IMG/VR virus record: IMGVR_UViG_3300048687_000113
Location: 32,001 to 96,000 of that record
Source of the DNA: a virus
Reading direction: 5' to 3' (one strand)
DNA: 64,000 nucleotides
Shown: one piece after another, positions 18,703 to 39,161 of the stretch
Numbering within the stretch: the first letter of the stretch is position 1
Layout: each line of letters opens with the position of its first letter
Program-made: the position numbers and the translations under genes
The notes under the pieces: model-generated
Seen by the model: only the letters and a program-made list of their open reading frames with translations
The model's database searches: none
Told to the model about the DNA's origin: nothing

Positions 18703-18746
18703 CGCGGTGGGACGATTGCGGTCAAATGCCTTGTAAGGAGACCGGT

Positions 18747-19640
18747 ATGGCCGTGACGAGTTCCGCGACGTTGTCCGCTGGTGAAGTGCCGGCCGAGGTT
18801 TCGGTGGAGGTTGTTTCCGATACGAGCGTTCGGGTCTCCTGGACGAGTGCGGAGGACCCGCTGGGCTTTGTCGTGGCGTGGTCGGTCGCCGGCGCGGAAG
18901 CCTGGACGGAGCGGCAGGTGTCGGGGGGCGCGCGGAGCCTGGTGGCGACGGGGCTGCGGCCGGGGACGGGGTACGTGTTCCGGGTGCAGTCCGAGTCGGT
19001 CTGGAGTACGGAGGCCGGCGCGGAGACGACGGGCTCGACGCTCGGGGCGCCCACGCTGCTCGTGGGCGACATCCTGGACCGCAACGCGAGTGTGAGTGTG
19101 CTGTCCCCATTCCTGGTGAGCCAGGCGCGTGTCGTCGAGGCGCAGGTGCGGGACACCCGGACGGACAGTCCCTGGTATTCCGTCTCGGATGTGCCGTGGA
19201 ATCTGGCGGCGGTGGGTCTGTATGAGACGGGGTTCGGGCTGAAGGGGCTGTCGACGGGAACCACGTATGCGGTGCGGGCCCGGGTCACGGCCGGCGAGGT
19301 GGTGTCGGAGTGGTCGCCGGAGACGCGGTTCACGACGACTGGGACCAGGAGTGGGAAGCCGAGCCTGTCGGTGGTGGCGGACTCGGCGACGTACAGCTCG
19401 GTGAAGCTGACGTGGGGGACGTCGCTGAAGGCGACGGTGCGGATTCACCGGTGGGTCAGGTCGACGTCGCCGGGCTCTCCGTTCCTGTCGCAGCAGGTCG
19501 GGTATTCCACGGACCTGGCGGGGACATTCACGGACTCGGGTCTGTCCCAGGGGACGGACTATTGGTACACGGTCGAGTGGGTGCGGGATTCGCGGACGAT
19601 CAGTGTTTCGAATCCTGTTGCTGTACGAACGCGGGGCTAG
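18747..19640 (+). CDS. Fibronectin type III repeat protein
   Basis: SVRVSW...GLRPGTGYVFRV, GLSTGTTYAVRAR, GLSQGTDYWYTV: three FN3-like domains; AAGGAG RBS. Confidence 0.8.
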   Translation: MAVTSSATLSAGEVPAEVSVEVVSDTSVRVSWTSAEDPLGFVVAWSVAGAEAWTERQVSGGARSLVATGLRPGTGYVFRVQSESVWSTEAGAETTGSTLGAPTLLVGDILDRNASVSVLSPFLVSQARVVEAQVRDTRTDSPWYSVSDVPWNLAAVGLYETGFGLKGLSTGTTYAVRARVTAGEVVSEWSPETRFTTTGTRSGKPSLSVVADSATYSSVKLTWGTSLKATVRIHRWVRSTSPGSPFLSQQVGYSTDLAGTFTDSGLSQGTDYWYTVEWVRDSRTISVSNPVAVRTRG

Positions 19641-27807: not shown

Positions 27808-29085
27808 CTATGCGCGGTTCCGGAGCCGCTCGGCGAGGGCCTGGGCGTCGGAGGTGTCGCCGACGAGCGGCAGGCGGGCGGTGATGTTGCTCAGGCCGTC
27901 GTCGATGCGGACGGACTGCACGCCGTCGGCGCAGTCGAGGAATTCGTTCCAGGTGGCCAGCGCGGTCTCGATGTTGCCGCGCTTGAGCTGGACCTGGCCC
28001 AGATCGGCCAGCACGATCGCGCGTGTGCGTTTGCGGTCCAGGCCGTGGATGTCGAGGGCGAGGTGCAGGTGGTCTTCGGCGGCGGCGAGGTCACCGAGGC
28101 GCGCGTGGATCATGCCGGACTCGTGGGCCCACCGGCCGGGGCTGTAGTGCGAGGCCCAGGACTGTCCGGGCCGGGCGGGGGCACGCTCGATCGCCTGCTG
28201 GGAGCCGGCCAGCATTTTCGCCGCCGTCGCCCCGTCGCCGTCGGCAGCCGCCGCGCGGGCGAAGGTGTTGCGGTAGTACGCGAGTGCTTTGAAATTGTCC
28301 AGGCGCCGGCCGCGCTGCTCGCATGCTTCCGCGATCCGCACCGCCACCGGGATGTGCCCCAGGTCGATGGCCTGGTCCGCCAGGCCGCGCAGTGCGGTGG
28401 CGGCCAGCTCGTTCTCGCCGGCTTCGGCTGCCAGCCGGTACGAGTACAGGTGGTACTTCTGGCACAGTCCGTCCAGGCCTTCGTCGCGGGCCATCCATCC
28501 GATGAGCTGGACCAGTTCGGAGGTTGCGGCGAACAGGTCGCGCCCGACCGGGTCGGTGAAGCGGCCGTTGAGCCAGCGCTGGACGTCGACCGTGAGGTAG
28601 CGGACGGCGAGGTGTCGGGCGTGCCCTCCGCCGAGTTCGGAGGCCGCGTCGCCCAGGGTCGTGGTCATGGTGCGCACGGCGGCGACTTCGCCCCTGCCGA
28701 CCGCCACGGGGCCGGGGTTGCTCACGCGGCGGGTGACGGCGCCGGCATCGGGCAGGTCGAGGGCCGCCAGGCCGACTGCGGCCGAGGCGGTCACAAGGAA
28801 CTGCCTTCGGTCCACGTCGCTGCCTCCCAGTCGCATCACTGCGGTCACGGTATCGACGAACTCAGGCTTATTGTCGCCGGATAAATCGATACCCAAGACA
28901 CGCTCGATGAAGGGCAGCCACTCCGTGGGAATCCGGGTACCCGCTTCCCACCGGTAGACCTGCTGCCGGCCGACGAGACCGGTTCGGCCCCAGCGCATCA
29001 GCGACAGCTCGCCGGCGAGCTTGGCCTGACTGCAATGGGGCGTACGGGCGGTGCGTGCCGCGCGGATGCGCTCTGCGATCGTCAT
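27808..29085 (-). CDS. XRE-HTH plus TPR-like regulator (Streptomyces NsdA-like family)
   Basis: SQAKLA...VYRWEAG; DVDRRQFL; GGGHAR; GWMARDEG. Confidence 0.8.
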   Translation of the reverse strand: MTIAERIRAARTARTPHCSQAKLAGELSLMRWGRTGLVGRQQVYRWEAGTRIPTEWLPFIERVLGIDLSGDNKPEFVDTVTAVMRLGGSDVDRRQFLVTASAAVGLAALDLPDAGAVTRRVSNPGPVAVGRGEVAAVRTMTTTLGDAASELGGGHARHLAVRYLTVDVQRWLNGRFTDPVGRDLFAATSELVQLIGWMARDEGLDGLCQKYHLYSYRLAAEAGENELAATALRGLADQAIDLGHIPVAVRIAEACEQRGRRLDNFKALAYYRNTFARAAAADGDGATAAKMLAGSQQAIERAPARPGQSWASHYSPGRWAHESGMIHARLGDLAAAEDHLHLALDIHGLDRKRTRAIVLADLGQVQLKRGNIETALATWNEFLDCADGVQSVRIDDGLSNITARLPLVGDTSDAQALAERLRNRA

Positions 29086-29114
29086 GTCGGGCCGTTCTCG
29101 GTCCTGGTTCACAA

Positions 29115-32559: not shown

Positions 32560-34113
32560 ATGGGGACCCCGCTCGATGCCACTGACCACGAACTCACCCT
32601 CGGGCTGCCCGAGGAGACCGACACCGGACCCGACACCGCCGGCGCCGACCCGGCCGTGGTCTCCGACATCATCGACAAGATCGTCATCGTCATCGACGAG
32701 CTGAGCGGCCACCCGCTGCGCCCCTACCAACTCCCGTTTGCGCGCCGCATCCTGGAGTCCCTGATCATCGAGGACTCCGCGAAGCTCACCGCCCTGTGGT
32801 CGAGGCAGTCGGGCAAGTCGGAAACCGTGGCAGACGTGGTCGCCGGCGCGGCCATCATGCTCCCCCGCCTCGCGAAAGTTTTCCCGAAGCTGCTCGGCAA
32901 ATTCCGCGAGGGCCTGTGGATCGGTGTATTCGCACCCACGGACGAAATGTCGGAGACCTTGTTCTCCCGCATCGTCGGCCGCCTCACTTCCGAACGCGCC
33001 CAGGACATTCTTGCCGACCCGGAGATCGACGAAAAGCTGGTGGCCCGGGGAAAAGTCATTCGCCTCAAGCGCTGCGGCTCCCTGATCAGGAAACAAACCG
33101 CACACCCCAAAGCCATGATCGAGGGCCAGACATACCATCTCGTTGTTGTTGACGAGGCCCAGGCTGCCGACGACAAGGTACTCAACAAGTCCATTGCTCC
33201 AATGCTTTCCAGCACTGCTGGTCTAATCGTGATGACCGGGACCCCGACCTATACGAAATCCGGGTTCTACGAGCAGATCCAGCAGAACCGGCGGAACGCC
33301 AACCGCAAGGGCCGCAAGCAGGACCACTTCCAAGTCGACTGGAAGCTGGTGTCCAAGCACGTCCCCCGGTACAAGAAATTTGTACAGAGCGAGATGGACC
33401 GGCTCGGCGAGGACAGTGACGAGTTCAAGCTCTCGTACCGGTTGGTCTGGCTCCTGGACAAGGGCATGCTCGTCACTTCCGACCGCTTCGACGCGCTCGG
33501 CGACACATCCATGCGTGTCGTCCAGGAATGGCACCGCTCCCCCGTCGTCGTCGGAATCGACCCCGCCCGCAAAACCGACTCCACCATCGTCACCGTCTGC
33601 TGGGTAAATTGGGATTATCCCGACGAGTACGGCAACTATGAGCATCGCGTGCTGAACTGGCTGGATCTCCAGGGGATGGACTGGGAGAGCCAGTACTACC
33701 GCATCGTCGAATTCCTCAACCACTACTCCGTGTTCGCGATAGGCATCGACTCCGGCGGCCTCGGCGACGTCGTCGCAAGCCGGCTGCGGGTCCTCATGCC
33801 CTACGCCGAAATCGTCGACCTCAAGTCCGACCGCACCGCCCAGACCAAGAGGTGGGCGCACATGATGGACCTCATGTCCAAGGGCCTCGTCGTCTGGCCG
33901 GCGCACGCGAAGACACGGCAGACGAAGACCTGGCGGAAATTTCGCCAGCAGATGGAGGACGCCGAACTCAATTACCAGGGTCCGCACATCATCGTCGCCG
34001 CTCCCGAGGTCGACGCGGCCCATGACGACTATGTCGACTCGCTCTCCAACGCGCTGTACCTGACTGCCGACCTCACCATGCCCGAGGTCGAAATGCACAA
34101 CAGCCCCTGGTAG
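32560..34113 (+). CDS. Terminase large subunit
   Basis: Walker A SRQSGKS, Walker B VVVDEAQ, TGTP, RNase H GIDPA...HDDYVDS. Confidence 0.93.
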   Translation: MGTPLDATDHELTLGLPEETDTGPDTAGADPAVVSDIIDKIVIVIDELSGHPLRPYQLPFARRILESLIIEDSAKLTALWSRQSGKSETVADVVAGAAIMLPRLAKVFPKLLGKFREGLWIGVFAPTDEMSETLFSRIVGRLTSERAQDILADPEIDEKLVARGKVIRLKRCGSLIRKQTAHPKAMIEGQTYHLVVVDEAQAADDKVLNKSIAPMLSSTAGLIVMTGTPTYTKSGFYEQIQQNRRNANRKGRKQDHFQVDWKLVSKHVPRYKKFVQSEMDRLGEDSDEFKLSYRLVWLLDKGMLVTSDRFDALGDTSMRVVQEWHRSPVVVGIDPARKTDSTIVTVCWVNWDYPDEYGNYEHRVLNWLDLQGMDWESQYYRIVEFLNHYSVFAIGIDSGGLGDVVASRLRVLMPYAEIVDLKSDRTAQTKRWAHMMDLMSKGLVVWPAHAKTRQTKTWRKFRQQMEDAELNYQGPHIIVAAPEVDAAHDDYVDSLSNALYLTADLTMPEVEMHNSPW

Positions 34114-34181
34114 CCATTAACGGGCCGGAAAACCGCGCCTTTAGCGTCCTGGTGAGACGTCTCAATCATTGGAGGCACACC

Positions 34182-34577
34182 ATGGCGAACAGCCCCCTCG
34201 CTCCGGACCCTGAATTCCAGGAGTCCAGCGACCGCTTCTACGAGACGAAGCACGCGCAGAACACGTCCCGGCGCGGCCCCCTTCGCTTCCAGGAAGGCGT
34301 CAGCACGGACACCGACATCCCGACCGAGTTCGGGACCGGCATCATGCAGGGCTACCGCACGCCGGCCGGCCGGATGAATCACAACAGCAACGTCTTCGAA
34401 AAGAGCGCTGAGGAGACGATGCGCGAGCGCGCCCACGTCGGGAGCGCGAGCTGGCCCGAGGCGCCGACTTTCATCTCCGCAATGGCCCAGGGCGCGTCCG
34501 AGCCCGAGCAGTCCTACGCCCAGGTCGACCGGGGCGAGGGCCGCTCCCAGCGCCGGAACTACGCCCGGGTGGACTGA
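34182..34577 (+). CDS. Conserved phage head-module hypothetical protein
   Basis: GGAGG RBS; RRGPLRFQEGVSTDTD; position after terminase. Confidence 0.7.
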   Translation: MANSPLAPDPEFQESSDRFYETKHAQNTSRRGPLRFQEGVSTDTDIPTEFGTGIMQGYRTPAGRMNHNSNVFEKSAEETMRERAHVGSASWPEAPTFISAMAQGASEPEQSYAQVDRGEGRSQRRNYARVD

Positions 34578-34580
34578 GCT

Positions 34581-35285
34581 TTGACCAATCCCGGACAGTC
34601 CACACCCTGGGGAAAGATCCCCATCCCCAGCGAGGGGAAGTCCCCGGACGTCCCCGTGGACCTGGCGGCCATCGCCGACCCGATCGACACCCTGCTCAGG
34701 AATGTCATCGGCGGGGCGACGGCTCCGACCGGGCCGCTCAGCCCCACCCTCACCGAGGCGTCCGCATCCATCGGCGGGCTGAACTCCACGCAGTCCAGCC
34801 AGCAAGCGGCCATCACCACCATGCAGGGCCAGATCGCGGCCCTGAGCGCCGCGCCCTGGGCGGTGGGCACCTCCCGAACGAGCGCGTTCTCTCTGGCCGG
34901 CAACGTGAAGACGCCGACCCTCGTGCACTCCTACCAGGTGCCGGCGTTCACCCAGCGCCGGCTCCTGATCGCCTGGGCCAACATCGCGGTCGGCTGGAAA
35001 GACAGCACGACGTCCGCCGTGCGCGCCCGCCTCCAGGTCCAGGCCGACGGCGCGAGCACCTACGTCGACCGCAACCAGCACATCCAGACCGGTGTCGAGC
35101 AGTCCCACACCCTCTTTTTCACCGAGACCGTCGAGGCCGGCAAGTCGGTGCGCGTGGGCCTGTCGATCGACGTCTACGGCGCGGCCACCTCCTCCAAAAC
35201 AGTCCAGACCCAGGAGGTCGACCCCCGCATCTACCTCATCGCCCTGCCCTGGTCCGGGTCCGCCGTGTCTTCCCTCGCCGTCTGA
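34581..35285 (+). CDS. Hypothetical virion protein (coiled segment + beta-rich C-terminus)
   Basis: ORF in late operon. Confidence 0.65.
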   Translation: MTNPGQSTPWGKIPIPSEGKSPDVPVDLAAIADPIDTLLRNVIGGATAPTGPLSPTLTEASASIGGLNSTQSSQQAAITTMQGQIAALSAAPWAVGTSRTSAFSLAGNVKTPTLVHSYQVPAFTQRRLLIAWANIAVGWKDSTTSAVRARLQVQADGASTYVDRNQHIQTGVEQSHTLFFTETVEAGKSVRVGLSIDVYGAATSSKTVQTQEVDPRIYLIALPWSGSAVSSLAV

Positions 35286-35321
35286 CCCCACTACCCCGAG
35301 CTGCCGATTGGAGGTGATGCC

Positions 35322-37036
35322 ATGTCGATCGCCTTTGCTTCCCCCAGCATGCGAGCTGCCGCCAGTGACCTGACCATCTCGGTCAGTCCGCTCGGCCTCG
35401 TCGAGCTGGCGGACGAGGAGTTCGAATTAGCGAGGTCCACGGTCCTCGTCTGACCCGCTATTCGAACCACTGGGCCTGGTACCTCGGCTACCACTGGGCC
35501 TATAAGCGTGAGGCCGGCGAGCCCAACGTCACCATCAACTACACCGGAGCATTGAGCCGGTACATCACCAACTTCACGTTCGGCAGAGGCGTTCACTTCC
35601 AGACCGAGAAGAAGTACGAGCACATCGTGCCCGCACTCCTGGAGCGGGTCTGGAGCGTCGACAATGACAAGAAGAACACCCTCTGGCAGATGGGCGAGAA
35701 CGGTTCCGTAGCCGGGGACTGTTTCGTGAAGGTGGCCTACGAACCCGCCTGGAGCGATACGGCTGGCAACACGCACCCCGGGCGCGTGCGCATTTTGCCG
35801 CTCAACGCTGCACAGTGCTTTCCGGAATACCATCCGCACGACCGTGATCGTTTGCTCAGGTTCAAGATCCGCTACAAATTCTGGGGCACCTCCCTAGAAG
35901 GGACGCGTGCCGTATACACGTACACGGAGATCATTACCGATGAATACATTGAAGAATATGTAAATGATGAACTCCTCGACGCGCGAGAGAACCCCCTGGG
36001 AACCATCCCGGTGGTGCACATCCGGAACATCTCCATATCCGGCTCCCCCTGGGGCCTGTCGGACATCGCCGACCTGATCCCGCTGAATCGCGAGTACAAC
36101 GAGAAGTGCACCGAGATCAGCGACATCGTGAATTATCACGCGGCGCCCGTCACGATTATCACCGGTGCGAAAGCGAGTCACCTTGAGAAGGGGGCCCGGA
36201 AAATCTGGGGCGGCCTCCCCAAGGATGCGAACGTTTTCAATCTGGAGAACGGCGTCGACCTCAACGGTCCGCTGCAATACCTGGAGCTGATCAAGCGCTC
36301 CATGCACGAGCTGACCGGCGTCCCCGAGACGGCCCTGGGCCAAGCCCAACCGATCTCGAATACGTCAGGAGTGGCTCTGGCAATTCTCTACCAGCCACTC
36401 ATGTCCAGGTACTCCCTGAAGCAGACCAACTACACGGCCGGCCTGCGCCGGATCAACGAACTTGTACTGCGCACACTCTTCCTCTACGAGCCCGAGTGCC
36501 GCATCTACGACCCCAGCACCCAGGGAATTCGGGTATCCGACGAACAGCCCCTCGTCATCGACCCGCGCGACCCCGAGGTGTACGACACCACCGTGGACTG
36601 GCCCCCGCCGCTCCCGGTGGACGTCCTGGTCAAGCTGAATGAAGTCCAAGCGAAGCTCGCCCTGGGCCTGGAGTCCAAGCGGGGAGCCCTGCGCGATCTC
36701 GGGGAGACCTTCCCCGGAGAAAAAATGCAGGAAATCTTCGACGAGCGACTCACCGAGGCCAAGGAAGACGGCGCGCTCGAATATATCAAGGCACAAATCG
36801 CCAGCACTATCTTGCGAACTACGGGATTGCCGCCGGAAGGCGTGGAAAGCCCACCCCCTGCACCGGCCGCTTCCGGCTCCAAGGAGTCCGGAAATACCGG
36901 AGCGACAAGCGCCGGCCCCTTTCCCGGAGTACCGGGAGTGGGGCAGGGCAAAGACACCGACTCGGTCCTCAGTGAACTCGTGACGCTGTCGCAGGGCACG
37001 AAATTGGCCCAGCGACGGAACCCGGAAAACGACTGA
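35322..37036 (+). CDS. Portal protein split into two frames at GAA-TTAGC-GAG (35424-35434): bypass-decoded gene or pseudogene
   Basis: GGAGGTG RBS + MSIAFASPS...ADEEFE then TTA and stop at 35451; continuation VHGPRLTRY...WYLGYHW in the 35552..37036 frame; SPP1-type portal motifs (GTIPVVHIRN, WGLSDI, TSGVAL). Confidence 0.85.
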
Positions 37037-37096: not shown

Positions 37097-37936
37097 GTGG
37101 CAACAAACCCCGCGCCCAACGGCCCGACAGAGACCGACCCCGGCACGCCGGCCGGCCCCGCCACCGGCACCGCCGTCACCCCCGAGGGGACGGTCACCGT
37201 CCAGGACCCGCCCAAGCAGCCCGAGCAGCAGTCGCAGGCCGGCCAGGAGTCCCGCTTCACAGCGGCCGACCTGGAGCGTGTCCGCCAGGAGGAGAAGGAC
37301 AAGCTCTACGGCCGCCTCTCCAAGGTGGACGAGCGGTCGGAAGCCCTGGAGGCGGAGCTGAAGGAGCTTCGCGAGGAGCGCCAGGCCCGCGAAGCCGAGG
37401 AGGCCCAGCGCCAGCAGTCCGAGGCGGACGAGGCCAAGCAGAAGGCCGAGGCCGAGATGAGCGCGAAGAAGCTCCTCCAGGAACGCTCTTCGGAGTGGGA
37501 GAAGCGCTTCGAGCAGATCGAGCGGGAGCGGGAGCAGGAGCGGGCAGCGCTCGCGAAGGAGAGCGAGTACAACCGGCTGCGCGCCTACATTCAGGAGCGT
37601 GCCGGCGCGGAGCGCGACAGCATTGCTCCGGAACTTGTGGACCTCATTGCCGGGAACTCTCCGGAAGAGGTCGACGCGTCCATTGAGATGCTCAAGGACA
37701 AGACGCAGGCAATCTTCCAGTCCGTTCAGTCGGCCCAGGAGACTGCGCGTTCGCAGATGCGCGGTGTGGCCGCCACCGGGTACACCGGGAACGGCCCGAC
37801 TGACGGCGACGGCGGCTCTCGTCAGCTTTCTGCGGACGACATCAAGAACATGCCGATGGCCGAGTTTGCGAAGTATCGGAACCAGCTTCTCGGCGCCGCC
37901 GCACAGAAGACGAACAATCGCGGCCTCTTCGACTGA
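37097..37936 (+). CDS. Capsid scaffolding protein
   Basis: Acidic coiled-coil between portal and capsid genes. Confidence 0.8.
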   Translation: MATNPAPNGPTETDPGTPAGPATGTAVTPEGTVTVQDPPKQPEQQSQAGQESRFTAADLERVRQEEKDKLYGRLSKVDERSEALEAELKELREERQAREAEEAQRQQSEADEAKQKAEAEMSAKKLLQERSSEWEKRFEQIEREREQERAALAKESEYNRLRAYIQERAGAERDSIAPELVDLIAGNSPEEVDASIEMLKDKTQAIFQSVQSAQETARSQMRGVAATGYTGNGPTDGDGGSRQLSADDIKNMPMAEFAKYRNQLLGAAAQKTNNRGLFD

Positions 37937-38018: not shown

Positions 38019-39161
38019 GTGGCAAGCGGAATCACCGGTACTCCGGTTCTGTCCCCCACTCCGACCGCCTACCAGGCGGCCAACTCCAGCATGCTCACGC
38101 CGGCCATTCAGCATATCTGGAGCAAAGAAATCCTGTTTCAGGCGATGCCGGTGCTTCGCTTCGAACAATTCATGGTCAAGAAGACCGAGCTTGGTACTGC
38201 TCCCGGCCTTTCGGTGTCGTTTATGCGGTACCGCTCGCTGGACGGAGCGCAGCAGCTCGTCGAGGGCGTCCGCATGGAAACTCATGCGCTTTCCGCCGAG
38301 CAGATCACCATTACCGTGGCGGAGCACGGCTTTGCCATTGCAGTGACGGAACTCCTGCTCAATGCGAGCTTCGACGACGTGATGGCGTCCGGCGCGCGCC
38401 TCCTCGGCCGCAACATGGCCACCTACCTGGACTCGATGTGCCGGGACACGCTGCTCGGGGCTCCGTCGGTTCTGTATGGGTATGACAAGCTCGCGTCGTG
38501 GTCGGCTGGTGCCGCGCGGACGCCGCTGTCGCCGTACGACCGTGGCATGTTTGCAGACAGCGAGGCCACGATGGCTGCAAACGGCGGCTTTCACTTCACG
38601 TCTGCGCTGGTCAAGGACGCAGTCGAGACCCTGGCGACGAAGAACGTGCCCCGATTGGGTGAAACGTACGTTGCATTCGTACATCCTCACCAAAGCCGCC
38701 GGCTCCGCGATGATCCCGAGTTCATCGAGGTGACAAAGTATGCGGCTCCCGGCAACTTTATGCTGGGAGAAATCGGACGTCTGAACGATGTCGTCTTCAT
38801 CGAGACAACTCAGGTCTTCCAGGGCAATACGAACCAGCCGGCGACCCCGCAGCTCGGCACGAACATCGCCCAGGGCGGCGCCCAGAGCTGGGGCGGACAG
38901 CCGGCCCGCAGCGCTTCCGGATCGGCTCCGGCAATTCCTGCCGTGAACGCTCAGCCGTCGAATCCGAGCGCCCCGTCCAACCCGATCTACCGTGCGCTCG
39001 TAATTGGCGACAATGCGGCCGGCCACGCCATTTCCCTCCCTGTCGAACTAAGGGATGGGGGTGTGCTCGATTTCGGCCGCGAGCATGCGCTTGCATGGTA
39101 CAGCATTTGGGGACTCGGGCTGATCACGGACTACGCCGTGGTCCAGTGCGCGACGAACTGA
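38019..39161 (+). CDS. Major capsid protein (N4-gp56-like HK97 fold)
   Basis: WSKEILFQAMP, VAEHG, YVAFVHPHQ, GEIGRLNDVVFIET, DFGREH..AWY. Confidence 0.9.
   Translation: MASGITGTPVLSPTPTAYQAANSSMLTPAIQHIWSKEILFQAMPVLRFEQFMVKKTELGTAPGLSVSFMRYRSLDGAQQLVEGVRMETHALSAEQITITVAEHGFAIAVTELLLNASFDDVMASGARLLGRNMATYLDSMCRDTLLGAPSVLYGYDKLASWSAGAARTPLSPYDRGMFADSEATMAANGGFHFTSALVKDAVETLATKNVPRLGETYVAFVHPHQSRRLRDDPEFIEVTKYAAPGNFMLGEIGRLNDVVFIETTQVFQGNTNQPATPQLGTNIAQGGAQSWGGQPARSASGSAPAIPAVNAQPSNPSAPSNPIYRALVIGDNAAGHAISLPVELRDGGVLDFGREHALAWYSIWGLGLITDYAVVQCATN

Follow-up and report, generated by a model that had tools for sequence, protein, structure and literature searches.

A UUA-led coding gap in the portal gene of an actinophage lineage and its probable bypassing by the ribosome

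How can a full-length portal protein be produced from a gene whose reading frame is broken after only 35 codons? This question is raised by the portal gene at positions 35322–37036 of the window, by which we mean the whole 64,000-nucleotide stretch of DNA that was analysed, i.e., bases 32001–96000 of the 109,243-bp virus record IMGVR_UViG_3300048687_000113, the GC content of the record being 66.5%. The break opens with the rare leucine codon TTA and lies between two Glu codons, and we consider it quite likely that the portal is made by programmed translational bypassing triggered by the UUA codon, in which the ribosome would hop from GAA to GAG. It is noted that Smith et al. 2013, as cited by Antonov et al. 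2023 (PMC10732093), put forward UUA-triggered bypassing for the large terminase of phiHau3, an R4-like phage, and of a prophage, and that the proposal has been partly tested in the second of these studies, which bears out what the initial annotation of this DNA had stated on UUA-linked bypassing in a Streptomyces phage. Here the phiHau3-type design occurs in another essential head gene, the portal, and in another phage lineage.

The split portal gene

Read from the ATG at 35322, frame 0 runs through ...GAC GAG GAG TTC GAA TTA GCG AGG... and then meets TGA at 35451, giving 43 codons. The portal frame is open from 35369 to 37036, with the first ATG, GTG or TTG in it only at 35552. The features of the gene are as follows.

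35310–35318, plus strand: Shine-Dalgarno (SD) sequence GGAGGTGAT of the portal gene, read from the sequence
35322–35426, plus strand: portal segment 1, codons 1–35 (MSIAFASPS...LADEEFE), from the translation; homologous to the N-termini of the intact portals of phages BRock and GiJojo
35415–35420, plus strand: SD-like GAGGAG, 3 nucleotides (nt) 5' of the putative take-off codon, read from the sequence
35424–35426, plus strand: putative take-off codon GAA (Glu), the last frame-0 codon homologous to the relatives, from the alignment
35427–35431, plus strand: coding gap TTAGC, opening with the rare Leu codon TTA (35427–35429), from the alignment against intact relatives
35432–35434, plus strand: putative landing codon GAG (Glu), with no other GAR triplet between it and the take-off codon, from the alignment and tblastn
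35435–37036, plus strand: portal segment 2, 533 codons and the stop (VHGPRLTRYSNHWAWYLGYHW...), matching PF05133 SPP1_portal with E 6e-23
35451–35453, plus strand: frame-0 stop TGA, met if TTA is decoded normally (43-amino-acid (aa) product), from the translation

When GAA at 35424–35426 is joined to GTC at 35435, a protein of 35 + 533 = 568 aa with the junction ADEEFE-VHGPRL is obtained. In the DNA alignment the excess over the intact portals is exactly 8 bases (TTAGC plus the landing codon), which is the distance from GAA (35424) to GAG (35432) that the initial annotation had given, and the tblastn homology to the intact portals sets in exactly at GAG 35432; the coordinates, frames, ribosome-binding site (RBS), stop codon, 568-aa fusion and seamless junction of that annotation are also correct to the base. 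The +1 frame past GAA reads TAG (35428–35430), and thus a plain +1 shift would terminate in the window. The product is assigned to the SPP1-type portal class by the match to the PF05133 profile and by its place between the terminase and the scaffold and capsid genes, its neighbours in the head module being:

32560–34113: large terminase (TerL)
37097–37936: scaffold
38019–39161: major capsid

A Logan contig of a soil-metagenome run, with a k-mer depth of about 10, shows no difference from the window over 35100–35800, the run being probably the record's own source, i.e., a separate assembly of the same sample. No RNA run was found among those that contain the stretch.

Of all sense codons, UUA is used least in Streptomyces-type hosts, where it is read by a single regulated tRNA, bldA. 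With a codon log-likelihood gene model of 144 genes and about 31,000 codons, which is crude and gives approximate counts, only 4 in-frame TTA codons are found in the genome, all of them in minus-strand, non-structural genes. A scan of both strands for TTA triplets with in-frame coding potential upstream, an early frame-0 stop and shifted-frame coding potential downstream covered 309 triplets, and the coding frame changes at one alone, that at 35427. No tRNA genes were found in the phage genome, so the reading of UUA rests on the host, in which, if it is of the Streptomyces type, only the bldA tRNA-Leu(UAA) can read it.

The series of gaps in related portals

For comparison with the window, loci encoding related portals were taken from IMG/VR (59 loci) and from assemblies of bacterial genomes (13 loci). 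In a quick maximum-likelihood tree (IQ-TREE) of the C-terminal 385 columns of the portal, the window falls in a clade of 21 distinct portals with a Shimodaira–Hasegawa-like approximate likelihood-ratio support (SH-aLRT) of 100. Gaps are present in 17 of these 21 portals, the four intact ones being L005, L007, L013 and L069, so the insert is not one peculiar to this isolate among uninterrupted close relatives, a case that the initial annotation had named as fatal to its proposal. The GGAGGTGATGCC ahead of the start codon is kept across the gap-bearing clade. The more distant relatives, with about 25 distinct portal sequences including those of isolated phages, are mostly intact. The nearest isolated phages, BRock, GiJojo, LuckySocke, Alone3 and pSt2308, have about 60% portal identity, and their portals are uninterrupted, start with MSAINFYSPSMRAAASDLAIAISPLGLVELSDEEFEMHGPRL and read ...DEEFE(M/V)HGPRL at the junction; no near-identical DNA was found in the phage collection, only these protein-level relatives at about 60% identity.

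Portals with 92–93% identity, the closest of all, come from Streptomyces strains, where they are embedded in large contigs or in chromosomes. Gaps of the design seen in the window are present in such prophage portals of the cultured strains Streptomyces mangrovi CGMCC 4.7117 (L064), Streptomyces sp. AD2-2 (L076) and Streptomyces sp. NPDC051840 (L071). Further related portals are present in assemblies of Kitasatospora, Saccharothrix and Nonomuraea. About 7.4–9.2 kb upstream of window base 1, on the minus strand (G000:C1:22833–24572), the record has a gene for a large serine recombinase (579-aa open frame; PF00239, E 2e-27), and the lineage is one of temperate actinophages, with which both the recombinase and the integration of close relatives in Streptomyces chromosomes agree. 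Among the gap-bearing relatives, one carries the classification of provirus, and direct terminal repeats are present in another, a record of 107,980 bp. Since gap-bearing portals are present in such a terminally repeated record and in prophages of cultured Streptomyces, the genomes that carry them are likely those of viable phages rather than wrecks.

The gaps of the clade number 1–3 per gene, have lengths of 4–25 nt and occupy eight positions, each opening with TTA straight after a sense codon. Together with those of other related phages and prophages they make about 20 differently built breaks of one design, which are given below as take-off codon / gap / landing codon.

After the last Glu of EEFE, the window's own site: GAA / TTAGC / GAG in the window (8 nt); GAA / TTAT / GAA in L006 (7 nt); GAA / TTACC / GAA in L048 (8 nt); GAG / TTAGG / TAG in L062 (8 nt)
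After the first Glu of DEEFE: GAG / TTACC / GAG in L010, L064, L065 and L067; GAG / TTAA / GAG in L017; GAG / TTAT / GAG in L071; GAA / TTACCTC(GAT) / GAA in L008; GAG / TTACC / GGG in L074
After the Leu of VEL: CTT / TTAC / CTC in L011 and L066
After the Arg of HGPR: CGA / TTA / CGC or CGT in L009, L011, L012, L066 and L076
After the Tyr of AFY: TAT / T / TAC in L009, L011 and L012
After the His of GYH: CAC / TTAC / CAC in L066 and L076; CAC / TTAG / CAC in L067
After the Arg of DRDR, about codon 175: CGA / TTAC / CGC in L048 and L062; CGA / TT / AGC in L071 and L076; CGA / TTACCCCTCGGGGTGATCAAAC / CGC in L074 (25 nt)
Distant relatives L045 and L075: TAC / T / TAT
Distant relative L053: TGA-led, TAT / T / GAC, then CTG
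Distant relative L052: an in-frame 18-nt insert with TTA first and a TAA stop inside; a second, TGA-led break GGT / TG / AGC, then CCT
Distant relative L073: an AGA-led 16-nt insert, GAG / AGACCCGCCGGTC / GAG

By a hand count of distinct versions, in which four of the more distant relatives are included, TTA opens 20 of about 23 gap versions. The landing codon is synonymous with the take-off codon in about 17 of the 23, compared with a chance expectation of about 1 in 20, and of the remaining six, five agree with the take-off codon in two of the three bases; in the versions checked, the landing triplet is also the first synonymous one downstream. The design seen in the window recurs in related portals, whose alignment the initial annotation had called for, with other lengths and positions and with matched take-off and landing codons. 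Moreover, the gap lengths at one site are unequal modulo 3 (7 versus 8 nt at one site; 5, 7 and 25 nt at another), so that neither one +1 slip nor one −1 slip would do for every version, whereas a hop brings the conserved motif back each time, the length of the junction motif being invariant in about 30 distinct intact relatives. It is also noted that over codons 2–29 of the 17 gap-bearing genomes the ratio of nonsynonymous to synonymous polymorphism, pN/pS, is 0.13 (pS 0.52, pN 0.067), a sign of purifying selection, which argues that the pre-gap segment is translated and needed, though it lies in another frame than the rest of the portal.

The use of TGA or of the rare Arg codon AGA as opener in L053, L052 and L073 suggests that any slowly decoded A-site codon may serve. 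The copy in L073 may be defective, because an earlier GAG at +2 gives the wrong frame.

The longest gap, the 25-nt one of L074 (L074:3400–3450), holds two elements that recall the signals within the gap of T4 gene 60, namely a small hairpin (CCCC-TC-GGGG) and, about 8 nt ahead of the landing codon, an SD-like GGGGTGAT.

The proposed hop, its purpose and its rivals

Based on the above arrangement, we propose the following pathway. A ribosome with peptidyl-tRNA(Glu) on GAA (35424–35426) in the P site would meet UUA in the A site and pause. During the pause the peptidyl-tRNA would un-pair from GAA and the mRNA would slide, until the tRNA reaches its next cognate triplet, GAG at 35432–35434, eight bases on, and pairs again. 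Decoding would then restart at GTC 35435, giving the 568-aa portal with the ancestral junction EEFE-VHGPRL, from which the tryptic junction peptide AAASDLTISVSPLGLVELADEEFEVHGPR (...EEFEVHGPR) is predicted, and the ribosomes that decode UUA would end at TGA 35451 with a 43-aa peptide. It would be expected that the portal yield falls as the charged bldA tRNA rises, favouring virion assembly in young vegetative mycelium.

The hop and its efficiency are what we infer; the arrangement itself agrees with the phiHau3 type in that removal of the block restores both frame and homology (EEFE-VHGPRL), in that UUA lies directly 3' of the last in-frame homologous codon, and in that the take-off tRNA can also pair with the landing codon, which lies directly 5' of the codon at which decoding would resume. 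The GAGGAG at 35415–35420 is suggested as a stimulator and might help explain why gaps collect at the EE motif; since it also encodes the conserved EE, such a role as a signal is only conjectured.

Several observations weigh against the bypassing. No conserved mRNA structure at the site is shared by the window, L006, L048, L062 and two intact relatives: in the window a hairpin can form in which 35420–35427 pairs with 35460–35467 (z = −2.8), with a GACGAGGA/TCCTCGTC stem possible, and the fold z-scores of the other five lie between −1.6 and +0.1. The landing codons of some relatives are imperfect (TAG, GGG, AGC, GAC) and a few gaps are opened by TGA or AGA in place of TTA, so the rule would be looser than one of matched codons after TTA. 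In this phage the hop rests on sequence comparison, with which a −1 or +2 event adding 2–3 residues (EEFE-ISE-VHG or EEFE-SE-VHG) would also agree. Finally, the dependence on bldA and with it the developmental gating are deduced here, as the bldA dependence is even for phiHau3 in the available part of PMC10732093. Of the developmentally gated bypassing proposed in the initial annotation, the bypass part has gained strong support from the comparative evidence, i.e., from the TTA-led gaps and matched codons in the relatives.

For the purpose of the gaps, two scenarios can be considered. In the first, the first 60 codons of the portal gene and codon ~175 would be a hot spot where short gaps led by slow codons (mostly UUA, rarely UGA or AGA) are gained, lost and swapped between phages time and again, and through which portal synthesis would directly reflect the charged bldA tRNA of the host. 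We regard this scenario as doubtful. If it is true, virion assembly by a prophage would be confined to young vegetative hyphae and would cease with the differentiation of the colony, and head assembly would be under a translational developmental sensor that evolves fast enough to provide a natural allelic series. An inverted TTA switch, as the initial annotation termed it, is no new idea, because the same logic has already been proposed for the phiHau3 terminase. Since several carriers are prophages of cultured Streptomyces, the long-standing proposal of developmental reading through the bldA tRNA is directly testable.

In the second scenario, which we hold to be a tentative but serious possibility, the same hop would occur for another purpose, the gap being either a constant attenuator or a tolerated, horizontally exchanged insert rather than a developmental sensor. 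As an attenuator, a bypass that always occurs at a few percent would set a low portal dose, and such a constant low-efficiency attenuator would fit the sequence data equally well as a bldA switch; a head has 12 copies of the portal and hundreds of capsid subunits. As inserts, the gaps would persist by altering a DNA target, as the gap of T4 gene 60 does for its homing endonuclease. The gaps all lie early in the gene, which makes abortive products cheap, and those opened by TGA or AGA in some relatives do not involve bldA. Nearly identical portals have different gap sets (S3 in the window, S2 and S8 in L071, S1, S4 and S7 in L066), and over the patch 35340–35453 the window is less similar to its nearest relatives than to L006 and L067, with the opposite holding for the upstream flank, which is a weak hint of exchange by recombination. 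Other selfish elements, group I introns without an open reading frame (ORF), are present in the capsid gene of the same module in relatives. By contrast, up to a distance of 3 kb from the portal no gene for a homing endonuclease was recognised in the lineage, where the gene order is the same with or without gaps, and the predominance of TTA among the openers points to selection for one codon with a host-regulated tRNA.

Leaving the purpose aside, a local −1 or +2 frameshift at GAA-TTA might replace the hop, giving EEFE-ISE-VHGPRL or EEFE-SE-VHGPRL with 2–3 extra residues and the junction peptides AAASDLTISVSPLGLVELADEEFEISEVHGPR, ...EEFEISEVHGPR or ...EEFESEVHGPR. The net shift of 8 equals +2 or −1, frameshifts are known to be provoked by hungry codons (cited in PMC10732093), and a +1 shift with one residue added could account equally well for the 4-nt gaps of relatives (TAT T TAC). 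We nevertheless judge a frameshift unlikely, because C GAA TTA G contains no slippery heptamer X XXY YYZ for a −1 event and tRNA(Glu) can re-pair neither at −1 (CGA) nor at +1 (AAU), where moreover the +1 frame is TAG. In addition, the sister versions at the window's own site need another net shift (7 nt in L006, 8 nt in the window), and 2–3 added residues would be at odds with the invariant length of the junction motif in the intact relatives.

It is highly improbable that the portal is simply broken, i.e., that no full-length portal is made because an 8-bp insertion has disabled the gene of a decaying element, or because of an assembly error. This would be allowed by the evidence coming from a single metagenome-derived record, for which the only run containing the whole stretch is probably its own source. 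The separate assembly is identical, however; 17 of the 21 members of the clade, with many samples and cultured strains as their sources, have the same design, and the pre-gap codons show a pN/pS of 0.13. The insert also has the rarest codon of the genome at its start and a matching Glu codon at its end, and no comparable break is present in the rest of the 109-kb genome.

The production of two polypeptides, the 43-aa peptide and an N-terminally truncated portal from an internal start, hardly deserves credence even though the first reading frame is equipped with a strong RBS and a stop of its own, because the portal frame has no ATG, GTG or TTG over 35369–35552, a start at 35552 would lose the conserved VHGPRLTRYSNHWAWYLGYHW block, and the relatives' gaps, of which one gene can have as many as three, are spread over codons 29 to about 175, which internal restarts cannot explain and which, with the lack of an early start, excludes them.

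Known systems and other genes of the lineage

The bypassing proposed for the portal is closest to that of phiHau3 g6/g7/g8 and of the StrepC.1 and S. catenulae prophage terminases, which likewise have a short UUA-led block in an essential assembly or packaging gene (PMC10732093). The block is 7 or 10 nt in those terminases and 8 nt in the window portal; common to both are a junction that is invariant in the intact homologues, a frame that is restored by skipping the block and a proposed logic in which bypass occurs when the UUA tRNA is lacking (PMC10732093). For phiHau3 g6/g7 the full-length protein was obtained in Streptomyces, the seamless junction peptide was detected by mass spectrometry in E. 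coli with the construct called g6/7 (UAA), and an added +1-frame stop inside the gap raised the recoding about twofold (PMC10732093). Unlike that type, the present gene is a portal, known from its sequence, and the phages are ~109-kb BRock-related temperate ones rather than R4-like. Here, moreover, eight sites with about 20 versions occur in one clade, whereas UUA-led gaps were reported in only 3 of 100 ter genes (PMC10732093). Our full-text search of the literature found no paper tying bypassing to a portal gene.

Very few natural systems of translational bypassing are known, and the UUA-led kind has so far rested on three terminase genes and one partial experimental study. The gaps of the portal series would all do the same work, with lengths of 4 to 25 bases, at many positions and with landing codons that match fully or nearly so, and such a natural series can show which features the ribosome needs for hopping. 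It should also be noted that gene callers will report such portals as truncated or as pseudogenes.

T4 gene 60 has a 50-nt gap, a stop codon after the take-off codon, a take-off stem-loop and a nascent-peptide signal. As there, the peptidyl-tRNA in our model would leave the take-off codon and re-pair with a matching codon downstream, so that one protein is read from two frames. By contrast, the window has a gap of 5 nt plus the landing codon and a rare sense codon in the A site, and no structure common to the four versions at its site was found. The gene 60 bypass element has been linked to mobile DNA (bioRxiv 10.1101/2022.08.31.505936). Hungry-codon bypassing and short hops in E. coli, described by Weiss et al. 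1987 and by Gallant and Lindsley (cited in PMC10732093), similarly have a slow A-site codon, with the P-site tRNA hopping a few bases to a matching codon. These, however, are laboratory constructs or starvation errors, whereas the arrangement in the window is fixed in an essential gene and its design is conserved across phages.

The yield of RF2 (prfB) senses the level of the factor that reads its A-site codon. The portal resembles prfB in having a slow A-site codon early in the gene and an SD-like element 3 nt 5' of the P-site codon (GAGGAG-TTC-GAA-TTA). The likeness ends with this spacing, because RF2 shifts one base and re-pairs on an overlapping codon, whereas in the window the P-site +1 triplet is AAU, the next +1 codon is TAG and 8 bases have to be skipped. 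The byps of Magnusiomyces capitatus, at 27–55 nt, are longer than the window's gap. They are inserts in mitochondrial genes that the ribosome skips (cited in PMC10732093). Like the portal gaps, they are short, many per gene and variable between relatives; unlike these, they are mitochondrial and are not led by one rare sense codon.

One of the four ordinary in-frame TTA codons, at 28884 (GAT TTA TCC GGC GAC), lies in a gene for a 434-aa transcriptional regulator containing tetratricopeptide repeats (window 27808–29112, minus strand; phrog_10886, E 3e-53). The synthesis of this regulator would need the very tRNA whose scarcity should favour portal synthesis. The regulator is missing from two complete related phage genomes, and only host paralogues of about 32% identity were found for it. 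At 18722–19333 of the window (minus strand) the crude gene finder shows coding potential about 37 codons 5' of the first start codon, and an in-frame TTA lies near the 3' end (genome position 50736); as a second split gene this locus is unconvincing, with no clear frame switch and no TTA-led junction.

In the head module the gene order terL-orf141-orf234-portal-scaffold-capsid is identical with and without gaps. Two genes lie between the terminase and the portal:

34152–34577: orf141
34581–35285, plus strand: orf234, 234 aa, directly upstream of the portal

Neither of the two matches a Pfam family or a solved structure, and one weak PHROG match was to a family of unknown function. The 234-aa ORF is far more divergent than its neighbours, with 24–33% identity where the terminase and portal have 69–80%, and no link between it and the presence of gaps was seen.

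The capsid gene is intact in the window, where no Rfam match reached the gathering threshold. In relatives, its homologue is cut at at least four positions by group I introns (Rfam RF00028) of about 250–300 nt that contain no ORF:

L007: 2882–3139 and 4114–4384
L009: 3717–3974 and 4943–5196
L012: 5591–5832, 6137–6389 and 7091–7348
L071: 6334–6584
L074: 5622–5873
L076: 6294–6545

Nine of the ten matches score 52–78 bits, above the gathering score of 50 bits, and that at L012:7091–7348 scores 43.7.

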